Shown piece after piece: positions 1-49,637 of a stretch of 64,000 nt of DNA. Below the pieces are notes generated by a model, which saw only the letters and a list, made by a program, of their open reading frames with translations, was not told where the DNA came from and ran no database searches. Location of the stretch: contig CBDCXX010000002.1 of assembly GCA_965223965.1 (NCBI GenBank), forward strand, positions 56,132 to 120,131, written 5' to 3'. This stretch comes from Phototrophicaceae bacterium. GTDB lineage: Bacteria; Chloroflexota; Anaerolineae; Aggregatilineales; Phototrophicaceae. The position numbers and the translations under genes are program-made. Numbering within the stretch: the first letter of the stretch is position 1; each line of letters opens with the position of its first letter.

Positions 1-423
1 TTGCGACATGGCGATGCGCTGGCCGTAGCCGAGCTCGAGGCCGATCGTGCCATCCGCCACGCCGAGCTGCTCACAGGCGTCATGGATGGCAGTCAGCGGA
101 TCGGGCGCGGCGTCGGCGATGCGCCAGCCACCCCAGGGGCGCACCTCTTCGATCCAGGAGGACTGGTAGGCGACGTCGACGAGACTCTCGGCGATGACGC
201 TGATGACGGGCTTGCTGTTGTCCCGGGGGACGATGATGCCCAGCGGGCGGTGTTTCGAATTCCAGCCGATGGTGCGGATGCCGGAGAAGTAGATGCCATT
301 TTCCTTGGCGGTGATGATGAGTGCGTCCATGCCATGTGCGTCCATACGTTCGCGCGCGCGTTCGACTCGGTTCAGATATTCCCCGGTCGGGAACATGGCG
401 TAGTTTGGTTCACGATGGGACAT
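1..423 (-). CDS. M24-family hydrolase (creatinase/prolidase-like), N-terminal part; 3' end runs off the window
   Basis: Absent from the ORF track because it has no stop inside the window. Hand translation of the reverse strand from ATG 423-421 (AGAGGAG about 8 nt upstream) stays open to base 1: MSHREPNYAMFPTGEYLNRVERARERMDAHGMDALIITAKENGIYFSG... This is the creatinase/prolidase N-terminal domain pattern, also seen at the N-terminus of 8487-9611. Confidence 0.6.
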   Translation of the reverse strand, partial: MSHREPNYAMFPTGEYLNRVERARERMDAHGMDALIITAKENGIYFSGIRTIGWNSKHRPLGIIVPRDNSKPVISVIAESLVDVAYQSSWIEEVRPWGGWRIADAAPDPLTAIHDACEQLGVADGTIGLELGYGQRIAMSQ

Positions 424-3984: not shown

Positions 3985-5181
3985 TCAGTCCAGGTGATTG
4001 AGCAGGTTACGCGCGGCCGCACCGCGTTCGCGAATGGGGTGCCCGGCCTCTTCCAGGAAAATTTCCAGCAGAGTTACCAGTGCGAGCAAGAAGGTCGGCT
4101 GGGCAGAATGTCCCAGGATGCCTACGCGCCAGACTCTGCCGCGCAAATCGCCCAGGCCGCCGCCGATATCAATGCGGTAGGGAGCCAGTAGTTGCTGGCG
4201 GATGGCGGCGGCGTCCACCCCGGCCGGCACATTGATGGCGGTTACGGTCGGCAGGCGGAACACTGGCCTGGCATGGACGGAGAGATTCAACGTCTCAAAG
4301 GCGAGGACCAGGGCATCGCGCCGATTGACCATGCGGCTCACGCGATATTCCATGCCCTGCTCGGAAATCAGCTGCAGCAACTCGGTGAGGGCGTAGAGGA
4401 TCGGTGCGGGCATGGTCTGGGCAGCACGTTCGTCTTCGCGGAAGCGGCGCAGCTGTGCCAGATCCAGGGAGGAGCTGAGGACCTGCTGTTGGCGGGCAGC
4501 GTGGACGGCGGCGGCGCGTTCGCTGAAAGTGATCAGGCCCAGGCCGGGGTAGGCGCTGATCGCTTTCTGGCTGCCGGCGACGCCGATATCGATGCCCAGC
4601 TCGTCGTGGGGCACGTCGACGGCGCTGATCGTCCAACGGGAATCGACCAGCAGCAGAGCGCCGTGCGCGTGGGCCAGCTCGCCCAGGCCGGCCAGCGCTT
4701 GCTGGACGCCGGTAGAGCCGTCGCCATGCAGGGTAGCCAGCAGGCGCGTCGGCTGTCTATCGAGGGCATCCCGCAGCGCTTCCCAGGAGACGGCTTCACC
4801 CGCCGGCGCCACGACGCGGATCACATGCGCGCCGCAGCGTTCGGCCGCCTCGGCCAGCCGCTCGCCGAAGAAGCCGCTGATGGCGACGACGGCTGTTTCG
4901 CCCGGTTGCAGCGCGTTCAGCAGGGCTGCTTCCAGGGCGGTTTCTTCGGAGCCGGGGATCAGGTAAGTATCCGCATTGTCGGTGCCCCAGATATGGCACA
5001 GCCGCGCGATGGCTTCCTCCAGCACCGCGAGGAAGCCGGGGTCGTTGGCGCCTTCCAGAACGCCAATTAATCCCTGGCGCGCGCGTGGCGAAGCGTTGCT
5101 GAGGTCCGGTCCAAGGAGGGTGCGTTCCGGCGGGTTGAGGCGTCGGTAAGGGAGGGGTGGGGGAGCGGCGTCGTCGATCAC
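3985..5181 (-). CDS. Class V aminotransferase (serine-pyruvate/alanine-glyoxylate aminotransferase-like)
   Basis: 398 aa PLP fold-type I protein with the GSQKAISA lysine motif. Its start overlaps the upstream stop (ATGA at 5178-5181). Confidence 0.8.
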   Translation of the reverse strand: MIDDAAPPPLPYRRLNPPERTLLGPDLSNASPRARQGLIGVLEGANDPGFLAVLEEAIARLCHIWGTDNADTYLIPGSEETALEAALLNALQPGETAVVAISGFFGERLAEAAERCGAHVIRVVAPAGEAVSWEALRDALDRQPTRLLATLHGDGSTGVQQALAGLGELAHAHGALLLVDSRWTISAVDVPHDELGIDIGVAGSQKAISAYPGLGLITFSERAAAVHAARQQQVLSSSLDLAQLRRFREDERAAQTMPAPILYALTELLQLISEQGMEYRVSRMVNRRDALVLAFETLNLSVHARPVFRLPTVTAINVPAGVDAAAIRQQLLAPYRIDIGGGLGDLRGRVWRVGILGHSAQPTFLLALVTLLEIFLEEAGHPIRERGAAARNLLNHLD

Positions 5182-6200
5182 TGCAGCTCGGGGATCAGGA
5201 ACTGGCCGGCTTCCATGATCTGCAAGTCATCGAGCCAGATGCTCTTGTTGCGGCAGGGGAAATCCATATGCGCTTTGGAGACGTTCTGCCCCTGGAAGAT
5301 GGCCGTATTGGCGCCGAAGGCGATCTGCATGTTGCCGTAGTAGGCTTCCTGGTCCTGCACGGCACCTTCCATCAAATAAGCGCCCATGCGGTTCCAGTCG
5401 GCGCGGTGTTCGCAACCCCAACCGATGTGGGCGATACGGTAGGCTGTCTCGTCGTTGAAGGCGGAGAACCAATCCTCCAGCAAACGTGCATCCAGGCCGC
5501 CCTCGATCTTGACGATCAGGCCATCGCGGATGGTCATCGTCACCGGCGAGGTGACGTAGCGCCCGAGGCGCAGGATCACGTCGTTGATATCGACCACCAG
5601 CGTGCCGTTGGCGCTGAACTCATCCGGGCCGACGGTGACCATGCCACTCGGCCAGTTGTCCCAGCGGCCGGGTTCATCGGCGAGGCTGTAGAGGCCCAAC
5701 ACGACGCGATCTTTGACATTGCAAGTGAGGTCCGTGCCCATGGCGGAGGTGACGCGCATCGTCTCCGCCTTGCGCAGCAGGTCGGCGCCTGCCAACGCGC
5801 GGCGGCGAATGACGGGATCGGGAGCCAGGCGCATCAGGACATCCTGCGGCTGGCCGCAACGGAGGACGCGGCCGCCATTCTCGAGCGCCGCCGCGTTGAG
5901 TAGCGAATAGGCATGGGCGACGGTGCTGACCAGGTCAATCACCATATCGGCACCTGCCCAGATGTCGGCGATGATGCCGCGGTCGTTCTCCGGCACGGTG
6001 GTCGGCACGGTGACCTGGAAGGCCTCCACGCCCAGATCGAGGGCCGCGCCGAGCGCGGCGGCCGGGTAATGCGGCGTCGTATGCGTGTCGCAATAGATGA
6101 GCAACGTCTCCCCTTCGTGCAGGTTGCAGAGCTCGAAAGTGCGCTTGAAGAGTGGAATCAACTCGGTGGATGCGCTGTAATTTAAAGGAAATTTCTTCAC
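5178..6200 (-). CDS. NicX/aminopeptidase T (M29)-like protein, paralogue 1
   Basis: Track ORF 5178-6296 trimmed to GTG 6200, which is preceded by AAAGGAGGG. Shares H(I/V)GWGC, QIAFG and H(I/M)DF motifs with 6308-7354 and 9629-10687. From memory, it resembles the family annotated as 2,5-dihydroxypyridine 5,6-dioxygenase/leucyl aminopeptidase T. Confidence 0.5.
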   Translation of the reverse strand: MKKFPLNYSASTELIPLFKRTFELCNLHEGETLLIYCDTHTTPHYPAAALGAALDLGVEAFQVTVPTTVPENDRGIIADIWAGADMVIDLVSTVAHAYSLLNAAALENGGRVLRCGQPQDVLMRLAPDPVIRRRALAGADLLRKAETMRVTSAMGTDLTCNVKDRVVLGLYSLADEPGRWDNWPSGMVTVGPDEFSANGTLVVDINDVILRLGRYVTSPVTMTIRDGLIVKIEGGLDARLLEDWFSAFNDETAYRIAHIGWGCEHRADWNRMGAYLMEGAVQDQEAYYGNMQIAFGANTAIFQGQNVSKAHMDFPCRNKSIWLDDLQIMEAGQFLIPELQ

Positions 6201-38946: not shown

Positions 38947-38963
38947 AAGCCGATTTTCACGCA

Positions 38964-39010
38964 AGGGACGGACAGGATATTATTCCCCTATTTTATCCTG
39001 CGCCGTCCCT
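38964..39010. terminator. Long hairpin between convergent phoU and the nucleoside hydrolase gene
   Basis: agggacgg (38964-38971) pairs with ccgtccct (39003-39010). An inner helix caggat/atcctg and an AT-rich loop follow. Confidence 0.5.
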
Positions 39011-39028
39011 GCCTATTGTGCGAGGAGA

Positions 39029-40070: not shown

Positions 40071-40225
40071 TTAGGTTCTGTTGACATTTCTGATTTCCAG
40101 CCCGTCATTCCCGCGCAGGCGGGAATCCAGAGAGCTTGGGCCGTGCAGGTGTCGCTGGACGCACCGATTTTCAGTGCTAACCTTCGGCAAACCGCTTCGA
40201 AATTCAGAATGTCCACACACCCTAG
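40071..40225. mobile_element. MITE-like element (about 155 nt) with imperfect terminal inverted repeats and an internal REP hairpin
   Basis: Left end ttaggttctgttgacattt; right end gaatgtccacacaccctag, whose reverse complement is ctagggtgtgtggacattc. Internal attcccgc-gcag-gcgggaat hairpin at 40107-40126. Related ends occur at 61815, 62232 and in the 115-nt tandem array. Confidence 0.6.
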
Positions 40226-40226
40226 T

Positions 40227-40523
40227 TTACGGTTGATAGAGATTTGACTTGAGATATAAGCGGGATACGGATATGACTTGATCATTTTCGATCATGTATG
40301 CCATGCGCCAATATCGATTGTTGGTGAGTATGACTCCCGACCTATTAGGGAAATAATCTGCGCGAAATTTAGTTTGCTCATCTGGTTCAGGGTTGCGCAG
40401 TATTTCAGCAAATAAGTCTATGGCGGCTTCTAATTCATATCTGTTCGCTTTTTCAAGTTCCGTCAGTGCCGATTCTGATAGACGGAGTCTATTCGATGGT
40501 TCGGAACGTCTTGGTATTCTCAT
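40227..40523 (-). CDS. RelE/ParE-superfamily-like toxin (pair 1)
   Basis: 98 aa. C-terminal ...YWRMAYMIENDQVISVSRLYL fits the RelE/ParE last-strands pattern. Paralogous to 43222-43512. Overlaps its upstream partner. Confidence 0.5.
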   Translation of the reverse strand: MRIPRRSEPSNRLRLSESALTELEKANRYELEAAIDLFAEILRNPEPDEQTKFRADYFPNRSGVILTNNRYWRMAYMIENDQVISVSRLYLKSNLYQP

Positions 40524-40710
40524 CTATCTCTATTGTTCGATACTCTCCTCGCTCAATCTCCCTGAAGCCCTCCTCAATGTCCGCAGTGAACCAATCGGAG
40601 CGAAGTTTGGCAAGTTCATCTCTTGTTTGCTCCAGTGATTGCTCTTCCCTCTCTTTAGTGGCCAATTCCCGCCTCCCATGGTGGCTTTGGGTTACCCTGA
40701 ACCACGACAT
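40489..40710 (-). CDS. Putative antitoxin (pair 1)
   Basis: 73 aa. LAKLRSDWFTADIEEGFREIERGEYRTIEID is paralogous to LDQLRPEWLAEDVAEGLKEIERDEVVEIEID of 43059-43235. Overlaps the toxin by 35 nt. Confidence 0.5.
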   Translation of the reverse strand: MSWFRVTQSHHGRRELATKEREEQSLEQTRDELAKLRSDWFTADIEEGFREIERGEYRTIEIDENTKTFRTIE

Positions 40711-40794: not shown

Positions 40795-41249
40795 TGGTAT
40801 TCTCAACATGCGTTGGTGTTCATACTCGTCATTCCCGCGCAGGCGGGAATCCACGCGGTCGCTGACTATGCTGGTTTCCAATGCCAACACGCATTGAGAT
40901 TACCGCCTACTAGGTTCTGTTGACATTTCTGATTCCCAGCCCGTCATTCCCGCGCAGGCGGGAATCCACGCGGTCGCTGGCTATGCTGGTTTCCAATGCC
41001 AACACACATTGAGATTACCGCCTACTAGGTTCTGTTGACATTTCTGATTCCCAGCCCGTCATTCCCGCGCAGGCGGGAATCCACGCGGTCGCTGACTATG
41101 CTGGTTTCCAATGCCAACACACATTGAGAATACCGCCTACTAGGTTCTGTTGACATTTCTGATTCCCAGCCCGTCATTCCCGCGCAGGCGGGAATCCACG
41201 CGGTCGCTGGCTATGCTGGTTTCCAATGCCAACACACATTGAGAATACC
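40795..41249. repeat. Tandem array of a 115-nt unit (about 3.7 copies) upstream of rtcB
   Basis: Unit starts (taggttctgttgacattt) at 40911, 41026 and 41141. Each unit holds the MITE left end, the REP hairpin gtcattcccgcgcaggcgggaatcca and ...ggtttccaatgccaacacacattgaga(a/t)taccgcct. The array is bounded by inverted copies of ccaacacacattgagaatacc. Confidence 0.9.
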
Positions 41250-43058: not shown

Positions 43059-43235
43059 ATGACAACTAAGGCAAGGAGAAAGCCGAGATTCAAGACGAAG
43101 GAAGAATTAGACCAGTTACGACCCGAATGGCTGGCTGAGGATGTTGCGGAGGGTCTGAAGGAGATCGAGCGAGACGAGGTGGTGGAAATCGAAATCGACG
43201 CGGAACGCGGAGAGTATCGATTTGTTCAGGGTTAG
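43059..43235 (+). CDS. Putative antitoxin (pair 2)
   Basis: 58 aa, below the track cutoff, hand-translated: MTTKARRKPRFKTKEELDQLRPEWLAEDVAEGLKEIERDEVVEIEIDAERGEYRFVQG. Overlaps the toxin start by 14 nt. Paralogue of 40489-40710. Confidence 0.5.
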   Translation: MTTKARRKPRFKTKEELDQLRPEWLAEDVAEGLKEIERDEVVEIEIDAERGEYRFVQG

Positions 43236-43512
43236 TCTGGGAATTAACGCTCGAAGGGCATTAGACAGTGCGACCGAGTCAGAGGTGGAGTCCGCAGTAG
43301 AATTATTTGCTGCTTTGCTAGATGACCCTTTCCCAGACGAAGTTACCAAGTTTTCGGTCAATTATTTTCCGAATCAATCGGGAGTAGTGGAAGTAGGTAA
43401 CGACGTTTGGTATGCGGGTTATGTTGTAGAGGGTCAGGATATACTGATTGCAAGGCTCTACTTATGGTCTAAATTGACGGATGACCCTATGCAGTACGGG
43501 GTTGAATTGTAA
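43222..43512 (+). CDS. RelE/ParE-superfamily-like toxin (pair 2)
   Basis: 96 aa with TTG start. FSVNYFPNQSGVVEVGNDVWYAGYVVEGQDILIARLYL is colinear with FRADYFPNRSGVILTNNRYWRMAYMIENDQVISVSRLYL of 40227-40523. Confidence 0.5.
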   Translation: MFRVSLGINARRALDSATESEVESAVELFAALLDDPFPDEVTKFSVNYFPNQSGVVEVGNDVWYAGYVVEGQDILIARLYLWSKLTDDPMQYGVEL

Positions 43513-43724: not shown

Positions 43725-43753
43725 TTGACATAGACGAACATACAATCTATATT
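43725..43753 (+). promoter_or_regulatory. Near-consensus sigma70-type promoter
   Basis: TTGACA (43725-43730), a 17-nt spacer, then TATATT (43748-43753). Confidence 0.55.
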
Positions 43754-43764
43754 GGATCCAGCAA

Positions 43765-43801
43765 GGGACAGACCCGATTGATTTGGGTCTGTCCCTTTTT
43801 T
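43765..43801 (+). terminator. Intrinsic terminator immediately downstream of the promoter
   Basis: gggacagaccc (43765-43775) pairs with gggtctgtccc (43785-43795), followed by T6 (43796-43801). Confidence 0.65.
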
Positions 43802-43844
43802 GTTGGCGATTGTTGAGTCGTATCGGATGCGTGGGAGGTTTGGG

Positions 43845-44273
43845 ATGGCGTTCACGGATGGGCAGAGGTCGCGCTTTCGCATTGCGGACACGGATGGCGT
43901 GATGCGCGACCTGTCGGCGTACATCACGGAAGTGAGCGGGCTGCCGGGCGGGCGAACACTGAACGAAGTAACGGCTCTTGGCAACTTGGGAGCGCGCTTC
44001 AAGCCGGGCGCGGAGGCGGTGCAGTTCACGCTGCGTGGACTGTTCGACGACACGCCGGACGCGGGCGCGGATGCGGTGTTGGGAGCGCTGCGATGCCACG
44101 CCGCTGCTACTGCCTTCGAGTATGCGCCGGCAGGTTTGGCAGGCGACAGCGTGCGTTACACGGGCGATTGCTGGGTGAGGTCCTACGAACTGCTCAGTCG
44201 CAGTGGGGAGATCGTGTCCTGGCGGGCGACGCTGCAAGTTGAGGGTGTTGCCAACAGGACGGACGGGGTGTAG
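43845..44273 (+). CDS. Phage major tail (tube)-like protein
   Basis: ATG 43845 (GGGAGG 6 nt upstream) in track ORF 43800-44273; 142 aa. MAFTDGQRSRFRIADTDGVMRDLSAYITEVSGLPGGRTLNEVTALG... has the style of siphophage/GTA-type tail tube proteins, recognised from memory. Confidence 0.45.
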   Translation: MAFTDGQRSRFRIADTDGVMRDLSAYITEVSGLPGGRTLNEVTALGNLGARFKPGAEAVQFTLRGLFDDTPDAGADAVLGALRCHAAATAFEYAPAGLAGDSVRYTGDCWVRSYELLSRSGEIVSWRATLQVEGVANRTDGV

Positions 44274-44295
44274 AGGATACAAGGGGATGTGAATT

Positions 44296-46269
44296 ATGAC
44301 CGATGCGAAGTGGAAGCTAATGGTGGACTGGCAGGGCGATGGAGAGTTCGCGGGCGCTGACGACGATATTGCGCCCGCAGCGCTAGGTCTGTCGCTGCGG
44401 CACATGCGAGATCTGAGAAGCGAGTATATTGATCCGGCGCGGCTGCACATTCGGCTGGCGAACTTCGACCACAAGTACAGTCCGCCCAACACGGCATCGC
44501 CTCTGTTCGGCGCGCTCAAGCCGGGACGCAAGGTGTGGCTGCGCGCCGCGTTCCCGTGCGATGAGTTCGGCGATATGGCGGGCGCAAGACTCGCTGACCA
44601 CGCGCCCGAATGCGGCGCGGCGTATCGCTGGACTGATGCCAACCATGACTTTCGCATTGCTGCCGGCGGCGCACAGATTAACGGCGCGCAGACGGATGGC
44701 GCTCGCTCCGGACGACGCATCGCAACGATGAACTTCGGCCTTGCGGATGTGTCGTTCGGCTGCGATTTCACGCGCGGAAGCAATGCGACGCGGCATGGCG
44801 GGCTCACCCTGCGATATGCGGACGCCGACAACTTTCTGTATGTGCGTGCTATGCCCAACGCGGTGCAGGTTCGCAGAGTAGAGCAAGGAAGCGATGCACT
44901 GGTGGCTGAGTCGGCTCTGCAATGGAACGCGGGAGACAAGAAGTTCATTCAGGCGGAGTTGCACGGCGACTCTATTCGAGTGTTTGTTGATGAGAAGCAA
45001 GTGATAGCGGCGCGCTCAGGGTTCAACCGCAACGCAACGCGGCACGGCTTGCACTGCGATGGCGCAGCCGATCACCTGTGGCAGCAGTTCGGAGGCTGGG
45101 TATCGCTCTTCTACGGCGATGTCGAGAGCATCGACCCGCAGCCCGGATCGGGTCCCGGATCGGGGCAATGTCGCATACGCGCTTACGACGAAATGCGTCG
45201 CCTCGAGAGCGTAACGCTGTACATGTACGCAACATCCTCATTTCCTCAAACATCCGATGAAATCCTCAGAGACATACTGGACTATGCGAGCGTTGACGCA
45301 AGCATTCGCAGGCTGGATGCGGGCACAGAACTTGTGCCGCAGTTATGGAGTCCGCCGCTCTGGGGAGTGCAGGCTGCGGATGAGATTCGGCGCCTGCAGG
45401 ATGAAGAGGACGGCTTCATCTATGTGGACGGGCATGGCTTCTGGCGCATGGAGAGTCGCGGTCACCGTGAAGCGGCGCCGCACTCGGCGGCAAGAGCGAC
45501 GCTGAGGGCGCGCAATGACGGCGCAGATGCCTACTTCTCCGCCCTGGAGTGGAGCGACGGTGTGGGCAACATCGAAAACAAGGTCTTCATGCGAGTCCGC
45601 GACGCCGCGAACCACGGACATCGCACGGCCTGGACGCTTGGCGAGACGCCGCGCTTCGACGTGGGCGAGACGCGCGAGTTCCTCGCCGAAAGCAAGGACT
45701 TCGATGTCGTTGGTGGACAGCTCAGTCCGCAGGCGAGCACCGACTATGCGGCAAACACGCAACCCGACGGCACGGGCGCTGACATCACAGCGCAGCTCAC
45801 CGTTACATATTCCGCGACGAGGCTATTCAACGGCAAGGGCGCCCTGATACGCGTGCGCTTCGGCGCAACGGCAGGCTACCTGACACGGCTGGGGATGCGC
45901 ACCGTTAACGCTTTGACCTTCAATGCGCCGGTGCTGGTGACCGCAGAGGACACGAACAGCCAGAACACTTATGGGCAGCGCATTCGCAGCATAGACGCTC
46001 GCTGGACGCGCGAGGCGCAGTCGGCGCAGGCAACAATCGCGCGGCGATTGGCTCGCAAGTCTTCGCCCCGCACCGCGCTCAGTGTGACTCTGCCCAACGG
46101 CTCGGATGCCAATCTGCTTCTGATGCTGCAAACGAAGTTGTCAGATCGGCTCGCCGTGCATTACGAGGACATGGGCGTGGACGGCGACTTCTTCGTGGAA
46201 GGCTACACGCTCGAAGTGGGGCAATCGGGAAAACATCTGGAGCGGACGCTGCTATTGCAGCAGGCATGA
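44296..46269 (+). CDS. Phage distal-tail (Dit)-like protein with an inserted lectin/LamG-like module
   Basis: 657 aa. N-terminus (WKLMVDWQGDGEF...RLHIRLANFDHKYSPPNTASPLFGALKPGRKVWL) resembles phage tail family proteins. The middle segment (GGLTLRYADADNFLYVRA...IQAELHGDSIRVFVDEKQV) looks like a concanavalin/LamG-type jelly roll. Confidence 0.45.
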   Translation: MTDAKWKLMVDWQGDGEFAGADDDIAPAALGLSLRHMRDLRSEYIDPARLHIRLANFDHKYSPPNTASPLFGALKPGRKVWLRAAFPCDEFGDMAGARLADHAPECGAAYRWTDANHDFRIAAGGAQINGAQTDGARSGRRIATMNFGLADVSFGCDFTRGSNATRHGGLTLRYADADNFLYVRAMPNAVQVRRVEQGSDALVAESALQWNAGDKKFIQAELHGDSIRVFVDEKQVIAARSGFNRNATRHGLHCDGAADHLWQQFGGWVSLFYGDVESIDPQPGSGPGSGQCRIRAYDEMRRLESVTLYMYATSSFPQTSDEILRDILDYASVDASIRRLDAGTELVPQLWSPPLWGVQAADEIRRLQDEEDGFIYVDGHGFWRMESRGHREAAPHSAARATLRARNDGADAYFSALEWSDGVGNIENKVFMRVRDAANHGHRTAWTLGETPRFDVGETREFLAESKDFDVVGGQLSPQASTDYAANTQPDGTGADITAQLTVTYSATRLFNGKGALIRVRFGATAGYLTRLGMRTVNALTFNAPVLVTAEDTNSQNTYGQRIRSIDARWTREAQSAQATIARRLARKSSPRTALSVTLPNGSDANLLLMLQTKLSDRLAVHYEDMGVDGDFFVEGYTLEVGQSGKHLERTLLLQQA

Positions 46270-46346
46270 TTTGCGTTCTCAATCAGACTTAGGAACCCCT
46301 ACCCTCTCTGAGGGGAAGGGAAGGTTAGGGGAAAGGAGACTGAAAG

Positions 46347-46559
46347 TTGGTTAGCGACTTGATTCAGTTCATCAACATAGGATTGGCGGGCGTGCTGCTT
46401 ATGTGGTTCATGTTCCGGCTGGAGCGCATGCTCGTGCGCCTCGACAAGACCCTGCAGCTAATGGCGCGCGCCACGCTGAGGATGCTCGACCGCCGCGACC
46501 CCAAGACGGCAACAGACCTCAGCAAGGAGCTGTATCGTATGAGCGGGGATGAGGATTAG
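46347..46559 (+). CDS. Small membrane protein (N-terminal TM, C-terminal helical tail), holin-like size
   Basis: 70 aa with TTG start and AAGGAG 8 nt upstream. INIGLAGVLLMWFMF TM segment. Confidence 0.4.
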   Translation: MVSDLIQFINIGLAGVLLMWFMFRLERMLVRLDKTLQLMARATLRMLDRRDPKTATDLSKELYRMSGDED

Positions 46560-47290
46560 GATTGCCGACCGCGCAATTCGGCTTCCAACTCACGGATGTG
46601 CGCCTGGGCTGCGGCAAGGTCGTCTTGGGCTGCAGCAAGGCTGCGGACATAATTGCCTATTTCGGGATCGTAGAATAGCAGCCTGTCCATGCGAACACTG
46701 TCGGCGATCGGATGCATGCCTTCTTGCGCGCACAGACTCAGTCCCAATAGCGCGCTGTAACCGCTCACCAAACCGTCGGAGTTGACTTCCAGCTCAATTG
46801 GCTCGTATGCGCCGCCAACCAGTATGTCGCCTGCAAGCGACGCGTCGTAGTAATTGCCGCCGCTCGGATCGAAACGCCAATATTCCTTGACGCCGATGCG
46901 TTCGTACAGGTCTCGCTTGTCTGTGAGGTCCCGCCGCGCCGTTGACGGAGAGGCTATCTCCAGTGCGAAGTCCGGCGCTTTGCCCACTTGCCATATCAGA
47001 TAGCCGTTCTGCGCGAATATGGCTCCGGCGTCCACACCGAAGGCGACATAGCAGTCTGGGAAAACCCTGTCGTTAAGGTTGTCGGGATTGTAGCAGACTA
47101 CGGTGTTTCCGTCGACGAACACGGTCGGATCGTCTTTATAATAGTTTTCCAAGATAGTCAAAGCGTCAGTGAAGTTCGGTCTCTGGAACATAGCATCCGG
47201 CATCTGATTGAGTTCACCGGGCAAGTCGCGCGGGTCTATAATGGGAAGGGCGTTCGTCATAGCATGCAACGGTATGGACTTTGTAGTCAT
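46556..47290 (-). CDS. Uma2 family (DUF820) endonuclease
   Basis: ATG 47290 (GGAGGCGAGGTGAT upstream). PDFALEIASPSTARRDLTDKRDLYERIGVKEYWRFDP is the Uma2 PD-(D/E)xK core. Confidence 0.8.
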   Translation of the reverse strand: MTTKSIPLHAMTNALPIIDPRDLPGELNQMPDAMFQRPNFTDALTILENYYKDDPTVFVDGNTVVCYNPDNLNDRVFPDCYVAFGVDAGAIFAQNGYLIWQVGKAPDFALEIASPSTARRDLTDKRDLYERIGVKEYWRFDPSGGNYYDASLAGDILVGGAYEPIELEVNSDGLVSGYSALLGLSLCAQEGMHPIADSVRMDRLLFYDPEIGNYVRSLAAAQDDLAAAQAHIRELEAELRGRQS

Positions 47291-47330
47291 ATCACCTCGC
47301 CTCCGTCTCATTCGTCCATGTCAATGCCCG

Positions 47331-48429: not shown

Positions 48430-48750
48430 TTATGCTTGTCTTTCTATGATGGCTATGTGTTCCGGCATACGATTAAGCCAATCGCGGATACAGGATTCAT
48501 CCTCTGGGCTTATGTCGCGCCTTTGAACGTATTCTGTGAGCGCTAATTGCAGATCATCTTTGTCAATTGGAGTAACAACGTGGGGGCTAAGCACATCAGC
48601 GCATATAACGTTGAGCTCATTGCTGTGTGCAAACTTATACACCACGTCTTCATCTTTTCTATCGGGTCGGAAGTAATCGTATTGAATTACATCAACGAGC
48701 GCGCTCTTATTCTCTCGCTGTGTCATATTACGTATATCACCCTCCGTCAC
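48430..48750 (-). CDS. Hypothetical acidic protein, translationally coupled to the PLD nuclease gene
   Basis: 106 aa. ATG overlaps the upstream stop (ATGA at 48747-48750). No family recognised. AT-rich. Confidence 0.45.
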   Translation of the reverse strand: MTEGDIRNMTQRENKSALVDVIQYDYFRPDRKDEDVVYKFAHSNELNVICADVLSPHVVTPIDKDDLQLALTEYVQRRDISPEDESCIRDWLNRMPEHIAIIERQA

Positions 48751-49637
48751 TTCAACTTCCAGCGTTCATTCTCTAATATGATAACGCCTCGTTGTTTCAA
48801 AATTTGCTGAGCATTGCGCATGCTATGCTTCCAATGATTGTCGCCAAGAAAAGTTTCCCCCTTAATGATAAGGTCAACGTTATCGTCGCACCACTCAGGC
48901 ATCAACTCTTGAACCAGCGGATATATTTCGATAGTGGACAAGGCGCCGCGCCGACGCAGGACATATTTTAACGCATCTGTAAACTTGGCAGTAATAGTTG
49001 CCTCTGGGTTAACAAGGAACTCTTCAGTAGCGTTTCGCAGCTCCCTTAGCTTGGCATCAATGTTGTTGAGTAGATGGTCGTATTCTGCGCCAGTGTCTGA
49101 CATTATATCGTCTATGTCAGACTTAGTTTGCCGTGCCTTATCCGCCAAGTCGTCCAGATCAGCCAGAGAGTCGGCTGGAACCGATATACCGAAACTGCCG
49201 TATTCGCGCAAATCATTGGATATGTCGCTAACCGCTTGAGGGTCAGTAATCGCAACGCCCAGTTCGTAATTTCGCCAAATCCCACCAGCAGTGAGATTTG
49301 CAGATGTAACAATGGCGGTGTGCCTGTCAGCGACATAGGCTTTGGCGTGAAGATAACGGAGATGGCGCACGGCAGCGCCTGGTACTTGCTCGCATAACCA
49401 AGAAAGCGCTCCCGCATCCACTGAACCGTCACGGAGGCTATCCCTGTTCAAATTAGTCAATATGTCTAATTGTACCGACTGTGGAAACCGCAAGCCGCTT
49501 TCTAATCGCTCTACAGGTTCTCTTGTGATGAAAGGCGCTGCGATAATAGCCGAATGTTGAATCGAATCAATAAATTGGTCGAAGGTGGTTTGCCAAGGTG
49601 ACTTGATGGACAGCAATTTCGGCATCCCATCCACCAA
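48747..49637 (-). CDS. Phospholipase D-family (single HKD) nuclease with a C-terminal winged-helix (Mrr_N-like) domain
   Basis: 296 aa. HKD motif LHAKAYVADRHTAIVTSANLT. The C-terminal ...ALKYVLRRRG.LSTIEIYPLV...WKHSMRNAQQILKQRGVI...RWKL resembles restriction-system wHTH domains. Confidence 0.65.
   Translation of the reverse strand: MVDGMPKLLSIKSPWQTTFDQFIDSIQHSAIIAAPFITREPVERLESGLRFPQSVQLDILTNLNRDSLRDGSVDAGALSWLCEQVPGAAVRHLRYLHAKAYVADRHTAIVTSANLTAGGIWRNYELGVAITDPQAVSDISNDLREYGSFGISVPADSLADLDDLADKARQTKSDIDDIMSDTGAEYDHLLNNIDAKLRELRNATEEFLVNPEATITAKFTDALKYVLRRRGALSTIEIYPLVQELMPEWCDDNVDLIIKGETFLGDNHWKHSMRNAQQILKQRGVIILENERWKLK

Follow-up and report, generated by a model that had tools for sequence, protein, structure and literature searches.

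Why would a bacterial chromosome keep two phage tail genes behind a near-consensus promoter that appears to run straight into a terminator? The question is raised by a 64,000-nt stretch from a Phototrophicaceae bacterium (Chloroflexota; contig CBDCXX010000002.1, positions 56,132 to 120,131), here called the window, in which a preliminary description had noted an orphan pair of tail-tube-like and distal-tail-like genes and had offered two explanations, a decayed prophage stub or a domesticated module under conditional read-through control. We found that the operon codes for a siphophage-type tube protein, a tail tip of the trimeric-hub type that carries a lectin domain, and a small membrane protein, and that purifying selection acts on all three genes at a syntenic site. 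Homologous tail genes in relatives go together with head genes of the HK97 type and with terminase-portal genes, which are either contiguous with them or split off. We propose, with about as much doubt as belief, that these three genes form the tail sub-operon of a particle system of SAR202/Dehalococcoidia, one that derives from a phage, is inherited vertically and resembles gene transfer agents (GTAs). The elements of the operon, in window positions and with protein lengths in amino acids (aa), are as follows.

43725-43730, plus strand: -35 hexamer TTGACA (consensus scan)
43735-43748, strand not applicable: imperfect palindrome CGAAC-ATAC-AATC-T in the promoter spacer, touching the -10 hexamer; candidate LexA-type (Cheo-box-like) operator
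43748-43753, plus strand: -10 hexamer TATATT, with a 17-nt spacer to the -35 hexamer (consensus scan)
43763-43801, plus strand: intrinsic-terminator-like hairpin and T6 (stem 43763-43797, T6 43796-43801)
43833-43838, plus strand: Shine-Dalgarno sequence GGGAGG of the tube gene (sequence reading)
43845-44273, plus strand: predicted tail-tube (major tail) protein, 142 aa (PHROG 10528, fold match)
44296-46269, plus strand: predicted tail-tip hub, gp27/Mu gp44/Tal-like, 657 aa (Foldseek, BFVD, gene order in relatives)
44593-45165, plus strand: predicted CBM66/ConA-like lectin beta-sandwich inserted at about residues 100-290 of the hub (PDB sequence match, Foldseek)
46347-46559, plus strand: single-pass membrane protein, 70 aa, TTG start (hydrophobic residues 5-24)

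Distribution, synteny and selection

Homologues of the hub were detected 190 times, all of them full length and all from metagenome-assembled genomes (MAGs) of Chloroflexi. A scan with one genome per species gave 69 loci (individual loci are given below by L numbers), all labelled Dehalococcoidia, SAR202 or Chloroflexota and many of them on closed chromosomes of ~3 Mb; the hosts are marine and sponge SAR202 Chloroflexi. The unit is syntenic in dozens of species-level SAR202/Dehalococcoidia genomes, flanked by genes for an IU-nucleoside hydrolase and RtcB on one side and by NHL, DUF1800 and DUF1501 genes on the other, and these flanks are shared by three groups, namely the window's clade, intermediate clades that lack a tape measure, and L018. 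The ratio of nonsynonymous to synonymous substitution rates (dN/dS), calculated for 13 genomes of the window's clade (dS ~1), was 0.20 for the tube, 0.16 for the hub and 0.09 for the 70-aa membrane protein, compared to 0.09 for the flanking rtcB and 0.12 for the hydrolase. Values so near to those of the housekeeping flanks, together with synteny over many species, rule out a decaying stub and thereby refute the first of the two earlier explanations. Purifying selection and the lack of an integrase or replication module nearby are features by which loci of the GTA type are recognized.

No other phage structural gene was found in the window, where 34 tblastn queries, made up of head, packaging and tail proteins from related clusters, matched only the three genes; the earlier statement that other phage genes are missing on both sides is thus correct within the 64 kb. 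No tRNA gene was found in the window either. The unit lacks adjacent head genes at many loci in the related genomes as well, and is not confined to complete prophages.

The tail proteins

Judged by family and predicted fold, the 142-aa protein is a siphophage tail-tube protein. Residues 2-138 of 142 match PHROG 10528 'major tail protein' (E = 1.9e-23), and the AlphaFold2 model, which is of moderate quality (predicted local distance difference test, pLDDT, 63), matches the tubes of monocin (MttP), lambda (gpV), 80alpha and RcGTA in Foldseek with template modelling (TM) scores of 0.5-0.6 (E = 5e-4 to 1e-2).

The model of the 657-aa protein (pLDDT 72, with three low-pLDDT segments) consists of two parts, a lectin sandwich at residues ~100-290 and a remainder that resembles tail-tip hubs of the gp27/Mu gp44/Tal type. 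This non-lectin part matches 3d37, 3cdd, 4mtk, 9gtr_q, 9rku and 8zdo in Foldseek with E values of 4e-7 to 2e-5 and a probability of 1.0, at a TM score to the target of only ~0.4. The best BFVD match is an unnamed viral protein (A0A1B1IPF7, E = 5e-51), others being 'ConA-like lectin' proteins of uncultured Caudovirales and minor tail proteins of actinophages. Gene order points the same way: in L069 and L074 the hub gene comes directly behind that of the tape measure, and in clade b it follows a mini tape measure. The hub could be assigned to no family of Pfam, PHROG, NCBIfam or PADLOC, and a tblastn search of 50,697 cultured-phage records gave no match; the hub family is large and uncultured, with 2,140 clusters at 50% identity (E <= 0.001).

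For the inserted domain the best match is the CBM66 of a levanase (4b1l: E = 2.5e-9, TM 0.73, 21% identity in Foldseek), which is also found by sequence among PDB entries (E = 0.009), and one hub homologue matches Laminin_G_3 just under the cut-off. Since many hub homologues of ~500 aa have no lectin segment, the lectin is an insertion. We regard it as a probable lectin of the ConA/LamG class, for which sugar binding is predicted. The 70-aa protein has one N-terminal hydrophobic helix and no match in Pfam, PHROG, NCBIfam or PADLOC; its gene is kept 3' of the hub in most loci, and by position only, at the place where siphophages put their holins, it may be called holin-like.

The earlier calls of a tail tube and of an inserted lectin/LamG-like module hold, the latter at the level of fold class, and the hydrophobic helix bears out the third gene as a membrane protein. 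The distal-tail (Dit) assignment of the large protein was right in so far as a phage tail-tip protein was meant, but a Dit is not clearly indicated: hub proteins are the top folds, there is no match to Pfam Sipho_tail, and the Dit structure 2x8k is only a weak match, and one to the tube protein at that.

Promoter and leader of the tail operon

The promoter agrees with the consensus at 11 of 12 positions and is the only such site, and the best, between 42000 and 48000; TTGAC of the -35 hexamer is retained in nearly all of 48 orthologous promoters. From spacing alone, transcription is predicted to start at ~43759-43761. Nine bases past the -10 hexamer begins a hairpin of 15 pairs (8 G-C) with a 5-nt loop, whose conserved arms are GGGACAGACCC (43765-43775) and GGGTCTGTCCC (43785-43795). 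The leader RNA (43760-43845) folds with -34.8 kcal/mol (z = -4.2), and none of 200 shuffled sequences folded equally well. The sense strand has everything that defines an intrinsic terminator, a G+C-rich stem, a short loop and a U-tract right after the stem. Both the near-perfect promoter at 43725-43753 and the GC-rich hairpin with T6 at 43765-43801 had been recognized in the preliminary description; the full stem is 15 bp long and starts at 43763.

The 43 nt between the T-run and the ATG of the tube gene (43845) include the ribosome-binding site and leave no space for a second promoter. From this arrangement it is predicted that transcription of the tail operon starts at the near-consensus promoter and that every transcript must open with a stable hairpin and a U-tract. 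As no transcribed sequence precedes the hairpin, no alternative RNA fold can compete with it, and any regulated read-through would have to operate via a modified RNA polymerase or a factor that binds the hairpin.

In 43 distinct leaders, from the window and other species-level genomes, the orthologous tube gene has this promoter, hairpin and T-rich tail in front of it, and because the same cassette recurs in all of them its layout is far beyond chance. In the orthologous leaders the first G of GGGAC lies 7-14 nt past the -10 hexamer (median 9.5), so that the stem begins at the predicted transcription start. For the 42 leaders with a GAC(A/G)G(A/G)CC arm, the median hairpin energy is -22 kcal/mol and the 10 nt past the stem contain a median of 6 T. 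The loop sequence is variable and the arms are spaced by 3-16 nt, and one stem position covaries (A-U in 28, G-U in 4 and G-C in 8 leaders), the G-U pairs being possible on the sense strand only. Covariation is sparse, as the stem hardly varies and this position is the single one that covaries. The variable loop and arm spacing and the sense-strand G-U pairs point to an RNA hairpin rather than a duplex operator. Rfam contains no family matching the leader or any other part of the 64-kb window.

Stems of similar sequence are found elsewhere. Between phoU and the gene for the nucleoside hydrolase lies a bidirectional, terminator-like hairpin (38963-39011) that begins with the stem bases of the tail leader, AGGGACGG. 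A scan of metagenomes for the hairpin gave at least 120 matches, nearly all in unrelated contexts and including tandem arrays; of the matches listed, L099 (terminase-portal) and L181 (tail module) alone are part of the tail system. The stem sequence alone was therefore dropped as a mark of a regulon, and position in homologous or paralogous operons was used instead. Multiple or tandem palindromes of the form GGGGACAGACCC-TGA-GGGTCTGTCCCC occur in unrelated soil and freshwater contigs (L100:10127-10247, L104, L114, L122, L149, L194); those of L100 have a period of ~48 nt. Taken together, these palindromes look like a family of repetitive extragenic palindromic (REP)-like repeats with the same stem sequence.

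The spacer of the promoter contains a second conserved element. In 47 of 48 unique promoters (C)GnAC-N4-(G/A)(T/A)TC touches the -10 hexamer in constant register, with at most two mismatches to GAAC-N4-GTTC (exact in 5 loci, one mismatch in 26, two in 16). Such boxes were present in 50 of 178 TTGACN-16..18-TAnnnT sites in 1.65 Mb, compared to 0.08 expected from shuffled spacers, an enrichment of ~600-fold. By sequence match the box resembles the LexA consensus of both Gram-positive bacteria (CGAAC-N4-GTTCG) and cyanobacteria (AGTAC-N4-GTACT) (PMC3091678). The box of the window, CGAACATACAATCT, agrees with 10 of 14 positions of the Gram-positive consensus. These data argue with moderate strength for SOS (LexA) control of the tail promoter via this putative operator. 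As a control for the box we looked for SOS genes and found no lexA in 1.7 Mb of related loci and a single recA, in L032 (7457-8441, minus strand), which is divergent from the tail cassette at a distance of ~200 nt; an exact box, GAACTGATGTTC, lies in the common intergenic region.

The cassette at other operons

The cassette is not restricted to tail operons. A complete copy precedes the terminase and portal genes in L099, and the same hairpin with a weaker promoter precedes them in L060 and L063. The hairpin and T-run are also located before the protease and capsid genes in L077-L079 and L084, and the hairpin lies just 5' of the tube gene inside the contiguous cluster of L073. Head operons of clades b and c have the same type of promoter and the box in the same register, followed by another conserved leader that comprises a small hairpin and then a GACGCCCCCG...CGGGGGCGTC hairpin, usually with a T-run. 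This is the pattern that would be left by a phage late-operon switch retained before each fragment once the cluster had split. The comparison with lambda PR'-tR' made at the outset fits these data, the same cassette standing before terminase-portal operons in relatives.

Promoters of the form TTGAC...GnAC-N4-GTGC-TAnnnT also precede conserved regions of ~250 nt that contain no open reading frame (ORF), located on the minus strand at L033:~4800-5067, L038:~5470-5739, L039:~1790-2061 and L058:~670-939. Four of these regions align well, and their first transcribed bases, CAACAAAGGACCGACC, resemble the 5' arm of the tail hairpin. Further box promoters without an ORF were noted at L031:8009 (plus), L046:8253 (plus), L031:18987 (plus) and L032:19522 (minus). 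Rfam gave no match for the ORF-less box-promoter transcripts. The ~250-nt transcript is put forward as a possible non-coding RNA belonging to the same regulon.

Head genes and tape measures in related genomes

The phage ancestry of the tail genes is evident from their relatives. L069 and L074 are siphophage-like, with adaptor, tail terminator, tube, one or more chaperones, a tape measure of 525 or 592 aa, hub and small membrane proteins. L017, L026, L044, L054, L059 and the IMG/VR contig L073 have genes for a head protease, HK97 capsid, adaptor, terminator and tube; next come a fused chaperone, a ~90-aa mini tape measure in which the C-terminal motif KEIKRLISEDKRRGL is retained, the hub and a membrane protein. 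In clade b (~30 genomes) the promoter-hairpin cassette is followed by no more than tube, chaperone, mini tape measure (90-136 aa), hub and membrane protein, and at 31 loci, the window included, the tube gene abuts the hub gene with neither chaperone nor tape measure between them. The tape measures of L069 (8427-10004, 525 aa), L024 (9569-9979, 136 aa) and L017 (9670-9942, 90 aa) have a common C-terminal motif, …KEIKRLISEDKRRGL, which suggests a series of shortening from 525 to 136 to 90 aa and to complete loss in the window's clade. L061 and L062 are contiguous head-tail clusters without a tape measure, so a tail that lacks one is a working design in this lineage.

Head genes were also found apart from the tail genes. 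Three head loci (L076, L207, L075) contain protease, capsid, adaptor and tail terminator amid housekeeping genes. L076 is located 14 kb from the tail locus L035, separated from it by the ATP synthase operon and with base-identical sequence where the stretches overlap; L207 is located ~100 kb from the tail locus L031 and L075 1.49 Mb from the tail locus L040, in each case in one genome. By analogy, this separation of head and tail corresponds to the multi-locus layout of GTAs. Head and tail genes thus occur together in related clade-b genomes; genes for terminase and portal turned up in more distant relatives only (L060, L063, L099). The capsid of L017 yielded 1,240 matches, the best 120 of which have 73-82% identity and lie in many cases on Mb-scale contigs. 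The term orphan is therefore apt for the locus itself, but not for related genomes, where head genes are present at separate loci of the same chromosome.

Some individual loci deserve mention. One MAG holds both L069 (contig_1), the full cluster with a hub 31% identical to that of the window, and L024 (contig_2), a stand-alone module with 56% identity, and the full cluster of L069 is also located beside NHL and DUF1800 paralogues. Signs of decay were noted in L044 (5812-11962), where four reverse-strand genes break up the tail cluster and the hub is split, and in L063 (18901-21718), whose terminase and portal genes are both broken in two, though possibly by errors of assembly.

Proposed function and alternative explanations

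For the tail sub-operon of a GTA-like system we envisage the following control. The spacer palindrome would be an operator for LexA or a LexA-like repressor, and initiation would be turned on by DNA damage. The hairpin would act as an intrinsic terminator and halt most transcripts at ~+40, and productive expression would require factor-dependent read-through, either by an RNA polymerase that has been modified at the promoter or close to it, or by an antiterminator that binds the hairpin. The switch would be the late-operon control of the ancestral phage, which domestication left in place before every structural sub-operon. The window's clade, having neither chaperone nor tape measure, would produce a very short tube capped by the lectin-bearing hub. 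The second of the earlier explanations, a domesticated module under conditional read-through control, fits the data. More tentatively, and with doubt prevailing, we suggest an unrecognized multi-locus system of SAR202/Dehalococcoidia that would combine an HK97 head, terminase and portal, a tail whittled down to a stub with a lectin hub, a single co-regulating cassette and possibly the ~250-nt non-coding RNA, with the window contributing the tail operon.

Several observations weigh against the proposal. Head, portal and terminase genes are documented in relatives and not in the window's clade, and no contig of this clade is among the best 120 of the 1,240 capsid matches, a list that ends at 73% identity and is thus uninformative for the clade; particle formation and DNA packaging are predictions. 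An antiterminator candidate was not found among the proteins of the window or of the related loci. At seven loci the promoter is kept and the hairpin is replaced by other 5' structures without a T-run, so the terminator is dispensable in some lineages. Stems of the GGGAC(A/G)G type are also present in the ordinary terminator at 38963-39011 and in many unrelated metagenome contigs, which makes conservation of the stem sequence weak evidence for a specific binding factor. As to the operator, the right half-site in the window is degenerate (AATC instead of GTTC), the second base of the left half-site differs between loci, and the recA adjoining the cassette in L032 has no proximal box. The last point agrees with what is said of the LexA of Dehalococcoides ethenogenes, which reportedly binds GAAC-N4-GTTC, at lexA and uvrA and not at recA.

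The main rival is a stand-alone tail trio in the window's clade, where head and packaging genes would be gone and the three genes kept for another job, either as a minimal structure of the F-type-tailocin or adhesin kind, to be released or displayed once DNA is damaged, or as a decoy against the tail assembly of infecting relatives. We consider such an exapted device unlikely on balance, with a good deal in its favor. Chaperone and tape-measure genes are missing here and in about two dozen related genomes, there is no head gene within 64 kb, selection is strongly purifying, the tube of the monocin tailocin is among the best structural matches and a lectin domain is suited to surface binding. 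The lack of contigs of the window's clade (clade a) in the best 120 capsid matches, which include several clade-b contigs, would also fit, but says little given the identity at which that list ends. Tape-measure loss in turn need not mean head loss, as seen in the contiguous clusters of L061 and L062; known tailocins retain tape measure, chaperones and a lysis cassette, and PADLOC gave no defence match for the trio. Even a functionless prophage remnant, with promoter and terminator as leftovers, could appeal to the missing phage neighbors and to broken relatives such as L044 (hub split and interrupted) and L063 (terminase and portal fragmented). This is scarcely credible in view of dN/dS values of 0.09-0.20 at saturating dS in 13 genomes, full-length ORFs in 190 homologues and the conservation of both synteny and regulatory cassette.

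Other alternatives concern the leader. A stem-loop at the 5' end of a transcript is the classic geometry of protective mRNA stem-loops, and the hairpin could be mainly such a stabilizer, or a leaky fixed attenuator, with control at initiation only and no dedicated antiterminator. The stem does begin 5-12 nt past the -10 hexamer, at the predicted start, seven lineages retain a 5' hairpin and have lost the T-run, and several U-tracts are interrupted by C and hence would be weak terminators. A stabilizer would not need the T-rich tail (median 6 of 10 nt, plus T's paired to basal A's), which is kept in 42 diverged leaders in which loops and flanks are not, and the head and packaging operons have hairpin and T-run leaders as well; we therefore hold this explanation to be rather improbable. 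It is very unlikely that the inverted repeat is a double-stranded DNA operator, or that promoter and hairpin form a separate tiny small RNA (sRNA) gene, even though the 11-bp arms are unusually conserved in sequence and a promoter followed by a hairpin and U-tail is the minimal layout of an sRNA gene. A dimeric DNA-binding site is at odds with the arm spacing of 3-16 nt and with intermediates that are G-U and not A-C, that is, on the sense strand only; for an sRNA, neither the loop nor the few bases left unpaired show conservation, which leaves no seed for pairing in trans, no Rfam family matches, and the downstream operon would be left without any other promoter.

Comparison with known systems

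As in lambda PR'-tR' with its antiterminator Q, a strong promoter and then a terminator stand ahead of late structural genes, the cassette of relatives is found before terminase-portal, the usual start of late operons, and a conserved element lies between -35 and -10, where the Q-binding element of lambda sits. In contrast to lambda, where the terminator is ~190 nt downstream, it is located at the transcription start in SAR202, the spacer element is a palindrome of the LexA-box type, and the cassette is repeated before separate sub-operons. Neither a Q homologue nor a sigma-dependent pause signal was found in the window and the related loci, to which the search was confined.

With the GTAs of Rhodobacter (RcGTA) and Caulobacter the system shares phage-derived structural genes, vertical inheritance, purifying selection, head and tail genes at separate loci amid housekeeping genes (here in relatives), the lack of integrase or replication genes nearby and, by prediction, expression gated by terminators; the Caulobacter GTA cluster is controlled by GafYZ activation and anti-termination (PMC11150451). 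It differs in belonging to the phylum Chloroflexota, in proteins that have no sequence kinship to those of alphaproteobacterial GTAs, in a tape measure that is tiny or absent and in DNA packaging and particle release that are so far predictions. We found no report in the literature of a GTA in Chloroflexota.

In LexA-repressed prophage and bacteriocin promoters of Gram-positive bacteria (Cheo box) such a palindrome likewise lies across the core promoter of a phage-derived operon that may be lethal, whereas the half-sites of the predicted SAR202 operator are degenerate (GnAC ... (G/A)(T/A)TC) and the same box is predicted to drive ORF-less transcripts as well, near the module in some genomes. 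The F-type tailocins (monocin, F-pyocin) resemble the locus in having siphophage tube and tip proteins without heads, and the closest solved tube structure is that of monocin, but their clusters retain tape measure, chaperones, fibres and a lysis cassette, and the SAR202 relatives carry head and packaging genes. The likeness to the gp27, Mu gp44, VgrG and Tal hubs lies in the fold of the non-lectin part and in gene position right after the tape measure in L069 and L074. Unlike these, the SAR202 hub is outside Pfam and PHROG families, has a CBM66/ConA-like domain of ~190 residues inserted near the N-terminus and is the sole tail protein after the tape measure, with no separate Dit.

SAR202 bacteria are uncultured and among the most abundant bacterial groups of the deep ocean and of sponges. 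If our proposal is correct, theirs would be the first GTA-like system in Chloroflexota and would provide a major ocean lineage with a new, stress-inducible and virus-derived means of exchanging genes or of interaction between cells. With its stepwise loss, the tape measure offers a natural series on the reduction of a long non-contractile tail to a stub, and the cassette, which is compact and portable, bears on how lethal phage-derived operons are silenced.

Other features near the operon

The surroundings of the operon in the window contain further small elements. On either side of rtcB, and oriented in opposite directions, lie two gene pairs that are paralogous to each other, one at 43059-43512 on the plus strand (58 and 96 aa) and one at 40227-40710 on the minus strand (73 and 98 aa). 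The small genes of each pair overlap and are laid out like toxin-antitoxin systems, and none has a family match. Compared with L001 and L004, the 43059-43512 pair is an insertion between rtcB and the tail promoter, but the upstream sequence is also found in L005. Just 5' of rtcB a 115-nt unit forms 3-4 tandem repeats (40796-41249, with a further copy at 40072-40129), and each unit contains a REP-like palindrome, GTCATTCCCGCGCAGGCGGGAATCC. On the other side of the operon, a low-GC insertion (0.45-0.47) on the minus strand at 48430-49637, absent from L001, separates the NHL and DUF1800 genes; it encodes a nuclease of the PLD family (Pfam PLDc_2; DrmC-like in PADLOC, E = 8e-15) together with a 106-aa protein of no assigned family and may be a defence islet. 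At its end the tail operon meets a convergent gene for a putative endonuclease of the Uma2 family (46556-47311, minus strand; Pfam PF05685, PADLOC candidate PDC-S03), which is absent at this position in L001 and present in L010 and L051.

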